Source: a bacterium (GTDB taxonomy: Bacteria > UBA8248). From it: a stretch of 64,000 nucleotides of DNA. Below the pieces are notes generated by a model. That model was given only the letters and a program-made list of their open reading frames with translations, was not told where the DNA came from and made no database searches. Below are positions 2,785 through 43,087 of the stretch, one piece after another. Within the stretch, counting starts at the first letter, position 1. Each line of letters begins with the position of its first letter. Both the position numbers and the translations under genes were made by a program. The stretch is taken from positions 3,072,001 to 3,136,000 of the forward strand of contig OZ253442.1 of the NCBI GenBank assembly GCA_965261085.1, read 5' to 3'.

Positions 2785-3423
2785 TTAGGCCGTGACGGCC
2801 TGCTCGGCGAGCAACTCATCGAGCACCCGATCGATTCTCGGCTGCTCCGTCCAACTCGCCTTGTAGGCGATATTCCCGTCCTTGTCGATGACGAAGACCA
2901 TGTTCGGCATGCGCCCGTAGGCGTTCACTACCGCTTCATCGACATCATCCACCAGAACGGGGATTTTCATGCCGAATTCCGCCACCAACTCTTTCGCGTA
3001 ATCCATCTTGTGCTCGAAGGAGGTGTGCTGGGTGTATTTTTTGAAGTACTTGCGCTCCTGCGCGTGCGGTTCCTTGGAATAGACGACGAAGAACTCGACG
3101 TCCTTGTCCTTATAGCGCTCATGCAACTCGTCCATACCCGGCACCTGCCGGCGGAAGGGAGGTCACGTAATGGCGCCGAATTCGAGGACGATGTTCTTCT
3201 CCCCGCGAAAATCCGCCAAATCCACGGTTTCGCCCGTCGTGCTTTGGAGCTTCACCGGAGGCGCAGGCCGGCCGGGTTTCAACTGATCCTCAAACGCCTT
3301 GTGGCGAACCTTTCTGAATCCGCTCATCTCACGCTTGATCATCAAAAACGGATCCAGATACCACATGCTCCACAAGCCCCCCAGAGGACCCGGCGGCCTG
3401 TCGATAAAGTCTTCTTTCCGCAT
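2785..3423 (-). CDS. Deiodinase-like / thioredoxin-fold selenoprotein, 212 aa, Sec at in-frame TGA 3165-3163
   Basis: ORFs 3163-3423 and 2785-3144 share a frame; readthrough gives NIVLEFGAIT-U-PPFRRQ...FFVVYSKEPH, matching deiodinase FGSCTUPPF...YIEEAH; SECIS-like hairpin downstream. Confidence 0.88.
3138..3151 (-). promoter_or_regulatory. Putative bacterial SECIS element
   Basis: mRNA UGA + 11 nt + CCGGC-AGGU-GCCGG hairpin; spacing and AGGU loop resemble the E. coli fdhF SECIS as recalled. Confidence 0.75.
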
Positions 3424-38531: not shown

Positions 38532-38804
38532 ATGAGCCGTGGGCTGGTGATGCACTCGAAAGACAATGTGGCCACCGTGCTGGAGGACATCGCCTCCGGA
38601 CAAAGCGTGGAAATCGAAGGTGGTGAGAAAACGTTGATGATTTGCGCGACGGAAACGATTCCTTTCGGCCACAAGATCGCAATGGGCAAGATTCGCTCGA
38701 ACGCGAAAGTGCTCAAATACGGCGAGGTCATCGGCACCGCTACACAAAACATATCCGCCGGTAGCCACGTTCACGTCCACAACATCAAGAGCACCAGAGG
38801 TTAA
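38532..38804 (+). CDS. UxaA/SuyA-type SAF domain small subunit
   Basis: DNVAT, IPFGHKIA, KYGEVIG, HVHVHN. Confidence 0.9.
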   Translation: MSRGLVMHSKDNVATVLEDIASGQSVEIEGGEKTLMICATETIPFGHKIAMGKIRSNAKVLKYGEVIGTATQNISAGSHVHVHNIKSTRG

Positions 38805-38806
38805 GT

Positions 38807-39985
38807 ATGCCCAGAAAAAAGGGCACCCCAACTTTCTGGGGCTACAGAAGGCCTGAGGGTCCTCCGGGCGGCCGAAATCATCTCGCCATTATCAGCGGGA
38901 TGGACAATTCAAACCCTATTGTCCGTAGAATCGGCTCATTGGTGCGAGACGCCACCCCTGTGAACACATCGTTCGGACGCGCTCTGATGGGTGAGGACGA
39001 GGAACAGCATTGGCGGGTAATGGGGCACACCGCTGCGCACCCCAACGTAGGGGCAGCCATAATCGTGAGCCTCGAACCCAAGAGCGCGAACGCCATCGCG
39101 GAAGTAGCCGCGAAAACATCCCCCTGGATGCCGATAGAATCCGTGAATATCCAGGAAATCGGGGGAACTCTCAGCACCACTTCTCATGTCGTGGAACTCG
39201 CCACCAAACTTTCCGCTCATCTTGCATCCGCCAAACGCGTCCGCTGTGAATTGGGCGAACTCACCATCGGCGCGGAATGTGGGGGCTCCGATACGACCAG
39301 CGGCGTCATTTCAAACCCCGTGACGGGAATGGTCGCCGATAAAGTCGTAGAGGCGGGGGGCTCGGTCATCTTTTCCGAAACATTGGAAATTGTGGGGGCC
39401 GAGCATCTTCTCGCCCGCCGGGCCGCAGACAGAAAAACGGCGCGGAGAATCATCGCTGCCGCCAAACGCGCCGTCGATTACGCCGAAAGCATCGGCGTCG
39501 ATTTCATCGGCTCGAATCCGGCGCCCGATAATATCCGGGGTGGACTCTCATCCATTGAGGAAAAAAGCCTGGGAGCCATCAAAAAAGCGGGCAGCCACCC
39601 CATCGTCGAGGTCGTCGGCGTGGGCGAGCGCCCCTCGAAGAAAGGCACCATATTCGCCGATGCCCCTTGCGCCGGCGTAGAAAACATATCTTCGCTCGCA
39701 GCCAGCGGAGCGCAAGCGATTATTTTCTCGACCGGCATCGGGAATCCGATCGGACATCCCATTTCTCCCACCATCAAGGTGACCGGAAATCCCCGAACCG
39801 CCCGGACTATGGCCGAGAACATCGATGTGGACATCAGCGGCGTCATGGAAGGGAGGATGCGCATCGATGAAGCGAGGGATTTGCTCGAAAAAGAACTAAT
39901 CGCGGTGATGAGTGGAAAACTCACGACATCAGAACTGTTGGGAGAGACCGAACTCACGGTCAGCCGGGCCGCACTAAGCCTCTAA
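38807..39985 (+). CDS. UxaA/GarD/SuyB-type large subunit (dehydratase or sulfo-lyase)
   Basis: GYRRPEG..GRNH, HPNVG, ECGGSDTTSG, GGLSSIEEKSLG, FSTG. Confidence 0.88.
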   Translation: MPRKKGTPTFWGYRRPEGPPGGRNHLAIISGMDNSNPIVRRIGSLVRDATPVNTSFGRALMGEDEEQHWRVMGHTAAHPNVGAAIIVSLEPKSANAIAEVAAKTSPWMPIESVNIQEIGGTLSTTSHVVELATKLSAHLASAKRVRCELGELTIGAECGGSDTTSGVISNPVTGMVADKVVEAGGSVIFSETLEIVGAEHLLARRAADRKTARRIIAAAKRAVDYAESIGVDFIGSNPAPDNIRGGLSSIEEKSLGAIKKAGSHPIVEVVGVGERPSKKGTIFADAPCAGVENISSLAASGAQAIIFSTGIGNPIGHPISPTIKVTGNPRTARTMAENIDVDISGVMEGRMRIDEARDLLEKELIAVMSGKLTTSELLGETELTVSRAALSL

Positions 39986-40031: not shown

Positions 40032-40544
40032 CTAAAAGCCCATTCCCACGATGAGTCGATTCCAGGCATTGATGAGCGCGATGGCGCCGAGAAGTTCCAC
40101 TATCTGCGCTTCTGAATAGTGCGCCTTCAGCGCTTCAAAAGTCTCATCGGAAACACTCACCCCCTGTGTACTTTCCTCACAAAGGCGCATCGCCGCTTTT
40201 TCCGGCTCATTGAAGACGTCGCTTGCGGAACCCTCTTGCGCGGCTTTTGTCTTCTCATCGCTCACTTTGTGCATCCTTGCCATGTTGGAATGCATGTTGA
40301 TGCAAAAATGGCATCCGTTGAGCACCGATGCGCGAATGTTCAGGACCTCCTTGAAACCGACCTCGATCTCTCCCGGACCATCCGCCACCGTGGTCAAGCT
40401 CAATAAAGAGCGCAAGAAATCGGGTTTATGGGCCAAAGCCTTCACCGGCGGAATCACGACGCCGAACTGCTTTTTCAGATTCTCCATGATACGTTTCGCG
40501 GATGCTTCCGCCTGCTCGGGCTCTAACTGGGAAATCCGTGGCAT
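40032..40544 (-). CDS. AhpD-like / carboxymuconolactone decarboxylase family protein
   Basis: SVLNGCHFCINMH CxxC...H motif; INAWNR. Confidence 0.9.
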   Translation of the reverse strand: MPRISQLEPEQAEASAKRIMENLKKQFGVVIPPVKALAHKPDFLRSLLSLTTVADGPGEIEVGFKEVLNIRASVLNGCHFCINMHSNMARMHKVSDEKTKAAQEGSASDVFNEPEKAAMRLCEESTQGVSVSDETFEALKAHYSEAQIVELLGAIALINAWNRLIVGMGF

Positions 40545-40777: not shown

Positions 40778-41605
40778 ATGAACAAGCAGATTTCTTTACG
40801 AGAAGCCGCTTCACTCATCAAGGAAGGAGATGCGATTAGTCCTGGCGGCACTCTTCTGCATAGGACCCCTGCCGCCCTCGTGCGCGAAATTGCGCGCTCA
40901 GGCATCCGGCGTCTCACACTCATCAAGCCTTCTCCCGGCTATGACGCCGACCTCCTTTGCGCCGCAGGCGCCGTCGAGAGGGTCATCAGCGGCATCGTTA
41001 CGTTTGAAGCGGAATTCGGATTAGCGCCCCATTACAGAAAGGCGATTGAGAAGGGGTTGACCGGCCTCACCGAACACGCCTGAGCCAGCGTTCTCGCTGG
41101 GCTGCGGGCCGCAGCCTACGGCGTTCCTTTTCAACCCGTTCGCGGATTTGATGGGAGCGATATTCCGGAACACAGCGGTATTTTCACGATTGAAGACCCC
41201 TACACGAAAGAGGAACTGTATGCGATTCCCGCCCTGAAGCCGGACTGGGCATTGATTCACGTTCAAAAATCAGATGTACAGGGTAACGCCCAAATCCTGG
41301 GTAACCGGCAGTTCGACGTTGAAATGACGCGCGCGGCGCAAAAAGGAGTCATTCTCACAACCGAGAAAATCGTACCACCCGAAGAAATCGCATCAGAACC
41401 CGAGAGAACCACCATACCGGGTTTTCTCGTCAAAGCTGTCGTGGAAACACCGGGCGGGGCCTCGCCTTGTAGCTGCCACCCATACTATGAGGTGGACAAG
41501 GATGAAATGGGTCGTTACCTAACCCTGACCCAGAGCAAGGATGGCCTTCAAGAATATCTTGCCAGTACCGACCGGACACACACGCAAGACGCAGTGGGAA
41601 GATAG
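40778..41605 (+). CDS. Family I CoA-transferase-like (GctA/IpdA-type) subunit A, putative selenoprotein (U102, TGA 41081-41083)
   Basis: ORFs ending 41083 and 41605 share a frame; the intervening codons give conserved GLRAAAYGVPFQP...EDPY...IPALKPDWALIHVQKSD..GN; SECIS-like hairpin downstream. Confidence 0.8.
41095..41123 (+). promoter_or_regulatory. Putative bacterial SECIS element
   Basis: UGA + 11 nt + CGCUG-GGCUGCG-GGC-CGCAGCC-UA-CGGCG hairpin with G-initiated apical loop. Confidence 0.6.
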
Positions 41606-41607
41606 CG

Positions 41608-42360
41608 ATGGGCAATCGCCTGGCCTTGTTGCCTGAACACGTGATTCGCGCTGGAAACCAGATGGTCGTCACCCTGTCGCGCCTCATCGAAGATGGTGAC
41701 AAGGTGTTCCACGGGGTCAACTCCCCGCTTCCCATGGTTGCGATTTTTCTGGCAAAAAAACGACACGCCCCCAACTGCACGCTCATAGAAGTCGCGGGCT
41801 CGGTGGACCCGAAACCACGCTTCATGCCGAACAGCACGGCCGACCCCGAACTCTGCCATGGCGCGGCTTCCTTGTTCTACAACCCGGACACGTATGATCT
41901 TTTTGCGCGTGGTGAGATGGACCTCGCTTTCCTGGGCGCCGCCCAACTCGACAAGCAAGGACGAGCCAATATGAGTTATATCGGCGACCCGTTCCACCCG
42001 AAAGTAAGGCTTCCCGGTGGAGGGGGAGGCGCCGTCATCATGCCCCAGGTGAAACGAACCGTCATTTGGAGAACGGTGCACGACAAACGATTTCTCGTGC
42101 CTAAGGTCGATTTTTCGACGCAATCCGGAAACCTGAGTCACGTGGTGACACCCATCGCCTTGTTTGAAAAAAAATCAACAGGGCTGGAACTCGCCAGCGT
42201 CCACGCCGGCCACTCGATGGATGAAGTCGTCGAGGAAACCGGGTTTGATCTGCATTGCCCAAGCGTTGTAGCGCAAACTCCCGCGCCGAGCGTCGATGAA
42301 CTAAACGCCTTGGAGGAACTCGATCCGGATGGTGTGCGGTTTTCAGAATTTCGTGTATAA
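41608..42360 (+). CDS. Family I CoA-transferase-like (GctB/IpdB-type) subunit B
   Basis: FLGAAQLDKQGRAN, RLPGGGG, H..RFL..VDF.T; starts 2 nt after the subunit A stop. Confidence 0.88.
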   Translation: MGNRLALLPEHVIRAGNQMVVTLSRLIEDGDKVFHGVNSPLPMVAIFLAKKRHAPNCTLIEVAGSVDPKPRFMPNSTADPELCHGAASLFYNPDTYDLFARGEMDLAFLGAAQLDKQGRANMSYIGDPFHPKVRLPGGGGGAVIMPQVKRTVIWRTVHDKRFLVPKVDFSTQSGNLSHVVTPIALFEKKSTGLELASVHAGHSMDEVVEETGFDLHCPSVVAQTPAPSVDELNALEELDPDGVRFSEFRV

Positions 42361-42445
42361 GTCGCGCAACTTTGATTGAAACGGTAATCCCCCACTCGCC
42401 ACATGATGTCGAGGTTTTTAGACACGATGAATTCCGGAGAATTTG

Positions 42446-43087
42446 ATGAATCGCGAATTGATGAATCACCTGAAAAACTATTCAGCCTGTCAGGCGGCGG
42501 ACGCCTTTGACAAATTAAAAATCAGAGGCCACATGCCCGACATCATCCTGTTGTCCCCCGATCCTGATTACCGGATGGTGGGAGAAGCCCATACCGTTCG
42601 GATGGTTCCCGCCGGCGGCGGCCCTCTGCCCAAACGCGAGGCGCACCATATCGACGCGGCGCCTGAGGGGAGCATCGTCGTCATAAGCATCCCCTCTGGG
42701 GTGACGACGGCCAACTGGGGCGGAATGATGAGCACGCGAGCGAAAGTAATGAAACTTGGCGGAGTCGTACTGGACGGCAGAGCCAGAGATCTAGAAGAAC
42801 ACCGCCAGATGGGATTCCCCGTGTTCGCCAGAGGGGTCTCGGTTCACGGCAGCGGCGGGTATACGGTTCCCATCAGTGTAGGAGAGCCGATCAATTGCGG
42901 GGGCGTCACGGTAAGGCAGGGAGATATCATTCTGGGAGACGTAAACGGTGTGGTCGTCATCCCCAGGGAAAGGCTCGAAGAAGTCATCGACAAGATGGAT
43001 GAATTGGCGAAAATCGAAGAAAAAATCATTGCGGAGCTCGAAAAAGGCGCGAGCATCGGTGAGACGTTCGCCAAGTATCGAGACTAG
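42446..43087 (+). CDS. RraA family / HMG-CHA aldolase-like protein
   Basis: ADAFD, NWGGMMS, DGRARD, GDIILGDVNGVVVIP. Confidence 0.9.
   Translation: MNRELMNHLKNYSACQAADAFDKLKIRGHMPDIILLSPDPDYRMVGEAHTVRMVPAGGGPLPKREAHHIDAAPEGSIVVISIPSGVTTANWGGMMSTRAKVMKLGGVVLDGRARDLEEHRQMGFPVFARGVSVHGSGGYTVPISVGEPINCGGVTVRQGDIILGDVNGVVVIPRERLEEVIDKMDELAKIEEKIIAELEKGASIGETFAKYRD

Follow-up and report, generated by a model that had tools for sequence, protein, structure and literature searches.

Three described α/β heterodimers share the fold of the protein analyzed here. The glutaconate coenzyme A (CoA)-transferase GctAB (1POI) represents the family I CoA-transferases and carries its catalytic glutamate, Glu54, in the β-subunit, where a glycine-rich loop acts as oxyanion or CoA loop. 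IpdAB (6CON, 6CO6, 6CO9, 6COJ) is the ring-opening hydrolase of COCHEA-CoA in steroid catabolism, and AibA/AibB of Myxococcus xanthus (5MZW-5N03) is a 3-methylglutaconyl-CoA decarboxylase that follows a hydratase in its pathway. The β-subunit of IpdAB has been reported to have no classical catalytic Glu (PMC5380842), and AibAB, whose substrate is a CoA ester although it is not a transferase, has a cysteine, Cys56B, in place of the catalytic Glu of the glutaconate CoA-transferases (PMC7756340). Here, we describe a heterodimer of this kind, subunits A and B, encoded at positions 40778-42360 of a 64,000-nucleotide (nt) stretch of bacterial DNA (the window; assembly GCA_965261085.1, contig OZ253442.1, positions 3,072,001 to 3,136,000 of the forward strand; GTDB lineage UBA8248). 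The gene for subunit A contains an in-frame TGA that very probably encodes selenocysteine (Sec) at a position corresponding to a functional residue of IpdA. The features of the locus are as follows, SECIS denoting a selenocysteine insertion sequence.

40778-41605, + strand: subunit A (α), GctA/IpdA/AibA-like CoA-transferase fold, 275 codons including Sec102
41081-41083, + strand: UGA as the probable Sec codon 102, motif E99-H-A-U102; TGA conserved, Cys in homologs
41099-41117, + strand: putative SECIS hairpin GGGCUGCG-GGC-CGCAGCCU within the coding sequence, codons +6 to +12
41468-41476, + strand: Cys231-Ser-Cys233 of subunit A, Cys231 being specific to the Sec lineage
41608-42360, + strand: subunit B (β), 250 amino acids (aa), with Val62 where classical enzymes have their catalytic Glu and with the Gly loop RLPGGGG retained
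41854-41856, + strand: Cys83 of subunit B, specific to partners of Sec-type A

The frame of subunit A is interrupted by a single internal stop, TGA 41081-41083, in the context TEHA-U-ASVLAGLRAAAYGVPFQP, and terminates at TAG 41603-41605. Subunit B starts with ATG 41608, 2 nt past that terminator, and its frame ends at 42360. Reading of the frames therefore agreed with a first-pass annotation of the sequence, which had reported one in-frame TGA and this 2-nt spacing. A six-frame search of 61 genomes (this genome and relatives) returned matches in 48. Full-length relatives with one TGA occurred at 30 places in 29 of the 61 genomes, all from the window's own family and with 63-100% identity, and tblastn on the fetched loci located this codon at aligned position 102 in every one of the 30 (two of these rows also count a TAA close to the end of the match). 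Cys-type paralogs coexist with the Sec form in the same genomes at 46-54% identity, and the four in the fetched loci (second copies in L041, L044 and L045, and a copy in L047) have TGC at codon 102. Two further observations came from the same survey. Genome G006 holds two near-identical Sec-type copies (C8:999548-1000372 and C1:42516-43337), which may represent two co-binned strains since its contamination figure is 16%. A partial match at G016:C3:194088-194543 (residues 110-262, 40% identity, one internal TGA) could be another recoded or broken relative.

The first-pass annotation had also proposed that the UGA encodes Sec, and had pointed to the residue at position 102 of homologs and to selA, selB, selC and selD as informative. 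Among 120 database homologs, column 102 is Cys in 93, Glu in 12, His in 3, Ser in 2 and Gly in 1, and the remaining nine are 154-170-residue proteins that begin just past this column. All four components of the Sec machinery, namely tRNA-Sec, selB (384 bits), selA (579 bits) and selD (336 bits), were present in the genome. Across the 29 genomes carrying the TGA form, selB was detected in 28, the exception being G034 (91% complete). The selD gene (G000:C1:3459-4421, − strand, outside the window) holds one in-frame TGA itself, which marks SelD as a selenoprotein in this genome. At the RNA level, a contig from the metatranscriptome library of a related strain spans 40945-41278 and shows neither the TGA nor the hairpin altered. 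Such libraries can contain DNA, which makes this evidence weak, and RNA-library contigs cover the locus in short pieces only, the uncovered parts being uninformative. Three other origins of the TGA were considered and rejected: a sequencing error, as 30 independent places share the codon; an alternative genetic code, as subunit A ends in TAG, the genome has its own Sec system and the selD TGA fits Sec; and a naturally split gene, as no restart codon is conserved after the TGA (codon +3 is GTT, GTA, GTG, ATC or ATT). With the conserved TGA, the Cys homologs, the complete Sec machinery and an RNA-level constraint on the downstream hairpin all pointing the same way, the proposal stands, and TGA 41081-41083 is very probably a real Sec codon.

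The stem of the conserved GC hairpin begins 15-16 nt after the TGA, rather than the 11 nt given initially, and its loop lies ~23 nt after the UGA; a small, non-conserved hairpin precedes it. All 8 base pairs were kept in each of 15 aligned sequences (15 of the 30 orthologs), with wobble-compatible U-A to U-G and G-C to G-U substitutions as the sole stem changes. When all 30 orthologs were considered, the seven codons of the stem had a mean synonymous codon entropy of 0.11 bit, compared to an average of 1.02 bit for 105 other conserved degenerate codons, and formed the seven-codon window of lowest entropy among the 151 codons examined. The TGC paralogs have no such hairpin. We propose that the UGA would be decoded by the SelA/SelB/SelC/SelD system with the aid of this in-frame hairpin.

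An AlphaFold (AF2) model of subunit A (predicted local distance difference test score, pLDDT, of 95.5) presented U102 as the first residue of a helix (102-114) that directly follows strand 96-99. Foldseek identified IpdA (template modeling score, TM, of 0.89; 31% identity), GctA and AibA as its best structural matches, while by sequence the closest solved relatives of the two subunits were AibA (115 bits) and AibB (119 bits), followed by glutaconate CoA-transferase and IpdAB, the latter with modest scores (~100 bits for A, ~25 bits for B). The Pfam family CoA_trans (PF01144), which is shared with GctAB together with fold, subunit organization and Gly-rich loop, covered nearly its whole profile in both subunits (A, 1.5e-21, 77 bits; B, 4.7e-19). 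An NCBIfam scan of A and B gave sub-threshold scores for CoA-transferase subunits (3-oxoacid, acetate) and no match to a selenoprotein model.

The active-site position itself was assessed by alignment to IpdA, gap-free around the site, in which U102 falls on the residue that is Glu in 6CO6 and 6CO9 and Ala in 6COJ, an entry titled ‘IpdAB E105A COCHEA-COA complex’. Both the alignment and the residue mutated in 6COJ confirm the earlier placement of U102 on IpdA Glu105. IpdAB, with the same α/β heterodimer fold, accordingly has a functional α-subunit residue at exactly this column, where Glu105 stands against Sec here and Cys in the clade to which subunit A belongs, Ser in GctA and Gly in AibA. 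A search of 50%-identity representatives (150 rows, the query plus 149) found Glu in 59 rows, Cys in 29 (counting the query, read with Cys), Asn in 20, Gly in 13, His in 7 and other residues in the rest; being this variable, column 102 behaves like a specificity-determining active-site position. Within the Cys-type rows (the query read with Cys and 92 homologs), E99 was found in 92 of 93, C102 in 93 of 93 and C233 in 77 of 93, and by this motif subunit A fits an uncharacterized ‘E-[HN]-[AS]-C’ clade of GctA-like α-subunits. In a quick maximum-likelihood tree of 100 rows, for which every other Cys-type row was omitted for size, the 30 Sec forms occupied a single branch (SH-like approximate likelihood ratio test, SH-aLRT, of 84), sister to the Cys type, and Sec and Cys types together split from relatives with Glu, His, Ser or Gly (SH-aLRT of 99).

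In subunit B, Val62 of ‘IEVAGS’ aligns to the AibB position at which deposited chains vary (C, A, S, V) and which PMC7756340 identifies as Cys56-β, whereas AibB Glu72 corresponds to Ala78. The classical Glu position was Val in 81 of 121 B rows, Ile in 39 and a gap in one, with Glu in none; the adjoining E61 is not conserved and R134-L-P-G-G-G-G is. The annotation had placed Val at the position of the catalytic Glu54 of GctB and had concluded that the enzyme is not a classical CoA-transferase. The first claim holds, with Val or Ile in all 120 aligned rows, and because B lacks the catalytic Glu the second very likely holds as well. By sequence, the heterodimer is grouped with the repurposed members of the GctAB/IpdAB/AibAB branch.

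Gene neighborhoods were compared next to those of the Cys-type relatives. In the window, four genes flank the AB pair.

40032-40544, − strand: AhpD-like/CMD-family gene, divergent, with a CHFC (CxxC) motif; TIGR00778 at 41 bits, above cut-off
42443-43087, + strand: RraA-like aldolase/decarboxylase-family gene, 3' of B, from a family scan
38532-38804, + strand: small 90-aa open reading frame (ORF), upstream member of a pair; putative SAF-like small subunit by size and place
38807-39985, + strand: UxaA/GD_AH-type dehydratase large subunit, by profile match

The divergent AhpD-like/CMD gene, A(Sec), B and the RraA-like gene form a block that is conserved between the window and other genera of the family. 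The AhpD-like gene adjoins Sec-type A in L037-L040, L042, L043 and L046, and the RraA-like gene follows B in L037-L040, L043 and L046. The association with the small-ORF/UxaA pair is variable (L037, L038 and L046 only). Other neighbors of AB in the window encode RlpA and a DUF255 protein, and Protein Atlas returned generic names only. Steroid-catabolic neighbors like those of IpdAB were not seen at this locus in family scans, and the substrate is surely different.

In genus g2, both of the loci scanned (L041 and L045, out of three) have the arrangement A(Sec)-B-A'(Cys) with a gene for a small CoA_binding_2 protein next in line, which raises the possibility of alternative α-subunits sharing one β-subunit. 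The tandem, in which the Cys-type A has no B of its own, lies at L041:4585-7401, L045:4567-7445 and L044:4361-6798 (all − strand), and genes for hydantoinase A/B, a short-chain dehydrogenase/reductase (SDR) and RidA are neighbors in L041 and L045.

For the Cys type, 80 Burkholderiales loci (L050-L129) were obtained via the Burkholderiales alignment. A was adjacent to B in all 80; an RraA-like gene was present in none, an AhpD-like gene in 9 (adjacent in none) and the small-ORF/UxaA pair in 7. A Pfam scan of eight of these loci revealed, in four (e.g., L071:5099-10078), the complete gene order of family III CoA-transferase, enoyl-CoA hydratase (ECH), A(Cys), B and AMP-binding ligase, while at least one of these genes was not found among the ORFs scanned in the other four. 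A TctC-type binding protein (4/8) or an IclR regulator (2/8) was encoded near or upstream. We know of no pathway assigned to this operon. Where a CoA-transferase and a ligase are at hand, a second transferase would not be needed, and the transferase present in the Cys-type operon therefore supports an acyl-CoA-transforming role of AB, as in IpdAB and AibAB; the pairing with ECH also resembles the hydratase-plus-AibAB logic. The small-ORF/UxaA pair, split like sulfolactate sulfo-lyase SuyAB, lies near AB in L069, L071, L073-L075, L077 and L083, from Advenella-like Burkholderiales. Its occurrence with AB may reflect a recurring functional link across lineages.

Two further cysteines travel with Sec. 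Cys83 of subunit B was present in 29 of 29 Sec-type loci having a B gene (L042 ends before B), whereas in 83 other loci residue 83 was Ala in 79 and Leu, Met, Thr and Cys in one each. Among database B proteins, Cys83 occurred in 72 of 72 at ≥58% identity and in 0 of 48 more distant ones. It lies five residues past the counterpart of AibB Glu72, which PMC7756340 describes as part of the active site. Similarly, Cys231 of subunit A, near the widespread Cys233, was found in 30 of 30 Sec forms versus 7 of 92 Cys forms. Since the Sec forms are kin, both patterns count as one event held constant. Cys83-β, Cys231-α and the AhpD-like CxxC gene hint at redox maintenance of the selenol or at a redox role, and as they accompany the Sec form, they make a redox component possible beside the non-redox use of Sec, as nucleophile or base of a hydrolase or lyase, that the annotation had proposed.

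Taking these results together, we favor, with some reserve, AB as an acyl-CoA lyase, hydrolase, decarboxylase or isomerase of the non-classical branch with a Sec-encoding UGA. Binding of an acyl-CoA is inferred from the retained Gly-rich loop and from the position of Cys-type relatives among CoA-activating and enoyl-CoA hydratase genes. The selenol (a thiol in the sister enzymes) at the IpdA Glu105 position would then be the catalytic group, although whether Sec acts catalytically on an acyl-CoA is, on present evidence, an evenly balanced question. The likeliest mode would be that this group attacks as a nucleophile and forms a Se-acyl or Se-alkyl adduct transiently, with Cys83-β, Cys231-α and the AhpD-like CxxC protein keeping the selenol reduced or resolving an oxidized form. 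The specific version of this scheme, in which Sec is a covalent, non-redox nucleophile on the CoA thioester, the intermediate is a selenoester or Se-Michael adduct and Cys83, Cys231 and the AhpD-like protein form a relay for protection and repair of the selenol, is put forward tentatively and may well be wrong.

Several points weigh against these proposals. The catalytic role of IpdA Glu105 is something we presume. No CoA ligase or hydratase gene stands beside AB in this window, and the 30 Sec orthologs, as relatives of one another, represent one evolutionary origin. With regard to the hairpin, an Rfam scan of 41040-41180 gave no SECIS-type match (three chance-level matches only), the 60 nt that follow the TGA had a folding energy unremarkable for GC-rich sequence (z = -1.44), and no pair showed a double compensatory change in the 15 aligned sequences, so that support for the hairpin comes from sequence freezing and not from covariation. 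Residues at such sites can be dispensable in AibA/AibB, as reported in PMC7756340. Finally, a redox function would explain the extra cysteines and the AhpD-like neighbor no less well than maintenance does.

Following the last point, AB could instead be a redox selenoenzyme in which U102 and Cys83-β (perhaps with Cys231/Cys233-α) form a selenenylsulfide center in the old CoA pocket; it would reduce or exchange a CoA-linked disulfide, a persulfide or another oxidized sulfur compound, and the AhpD-like CxxC neighbor would recycle the center. The near-perfect partition of Cys83-β (29/29 against Ala in 79/83) and of Cys231-α (30/30 against 7/92) is what such a center would predict, as is the conservation of the AhpD-like CHFC gene next to the Sec form in several genera. 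U102 also sits at a helix N-terminus, as redox-active Cys and Sec residues do, and most known selenoproteins are redox enzymes, as stated in PMC9312934 and PMC13188914. However, the Cys-type sister enzymes have no Cys83-β and are found in plain acyl-CoA operons (ligase, hydratase, family III transferase), only 9 of 80 Cys-type loci have an AhpD-like gene within 7 kb, with none adjacent, and the CoA-transferase fold has no known redox member. We consider this alternative unlikely, but it is the one that deserves most attention.

A metal or Fe-S-type site built from Sec102, Cys231 and Cys233 of the α-subunit and Cys83 of the β-subunit, which would give the fold a new catalytic center with selenium as a ligand, would account for the four chalcogen residues of the Sec lineage, two of which were newly gained along with Sec. 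Such a site is improbable, as a known metal-site motif is absent, Cys233 is common in relatives that have none of the other residues, and family scans of the window neighbors showed no maturation genes. More improbable still is an ordinary family I CoA-transferase with Sec or Cys merely lining the pocket, for which one could cite the match to CoA_trans in Pfam, conservation of the Gly-rich loop and source names such as ‘3-oxoadipate--succinyl-CoA transferase’: the β-subunit Glu position is Val or Ile in 120 of 121 rows (one gap), the Glu next to it varies, AibAB, a decarboxylase, and IpdAB, a hydrolase, are the closest relatives of solved structure, and Cys-type operons have a family III CoA-transferase and a ligase of their own.

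Public databases would, at face value, suggest that the TGA is a true stop and that the gene is broken or split into polypeptides of 101 and ~170 residues. They hold the gene as fragments only (clusters of P0133, P0013 and P0043), an N-terminal one of 101 aa (a cluster of 50 members) and C-terminal ones of 166-167 aa, which go by ‘CoA transferase subunit A, partial’ or ‘hypothetical protein’ and derive from metagenome-assembled genomes (MAGs) labeled Nitrospinota or Tectomicrobia; the 50%-representative search likewise returned a 101-residue protein terminating just before column 102. A true stop is nevertheless as improbable as any explanation considered here, given that over 63-100% identity the codon is always TGA and never TAA, TAG or a sense codon, protein-level conservation persists in both halves, no start codon is conserved after the TGA (making a split gene unlikely; the starts of the C-terminal fragments are called at non-conserved codons), the hairpin is frozen at synonymous sites, homologs have Cys at the site and the genome has Sec machinery.

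A CoA-transferase-fold family of Sec proteins appears not yet to have been catalogued. Full-text literature searches combining selenocysteine or selenoprotein with CoA-transferase names yielded nothing relevant, and the family is absent from the NCBIfam models, from two reviews of selenoproteomes (PMC9312934, PMC13188914; text and tables) and from the main text of BSepDB, whose supplementary family table might list it. In common with catalogued bacterial selenoproteins, which are mostly of thioredoxin fold or AhpD-like, subunit A has a UGA with a downstream hairpin, Cys homologs and a Sec-rich lineage; unlike them, it has neither a UxxC nor a CxxU motif, and its fold has no catalogued selenoprotein. 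BSepDB counts Nitrospinota-labeled MAGs among the most selenoprotein-rich bacteria (48-54 selenoprotein genes). In a lineage of this kind, to which the source names of near-identical proteins would assign the present genome, the arrival of another Cys-to-Sec family is plausible and comes as somewhat less of a surprise.

Known bacterial selenoproteins are nearly all redox proteins, many with a thioredoxin-like fold, and Sec at the active-site position of a lyase or hydrolase of CoA-transferase fold would extend the range of reactions that draw on selenium. If the covalent nucleophile were to prove true, AB would be the first selenoenzyme of CoA-transferase fold, Sec would gain a further chemical use, and a function could be given to a large Cys-type clade in Burkholderiales and many other bacteria. 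The Sec/Cys site would mark the catalytic residue of this widespread clade, whose members are annotated as ‘glutaconate CoA-transferase’ and are probably not transferases. With its co-evolving cysteines and its AhpD-like neighbor, the Sec form lends itself to testing how enzymes adapt to Cys-to-Sec replacement, and many two-fragment public records would be mended by a family model that allows U at column 102.

A second selenoprotein had been claimed for the window, and a candidate was indeed found in a deiodinase-like ORF (2788-3423, − strand), which carries an in-frame TGA (3163-3165) in FGAIT-U-PPF. The ORF scored 110 bits against NF038285, below cut-off, and is ResA-like; a GC hairpin, CCGGCAGGUGCCGG, lies shortly after its TGA.

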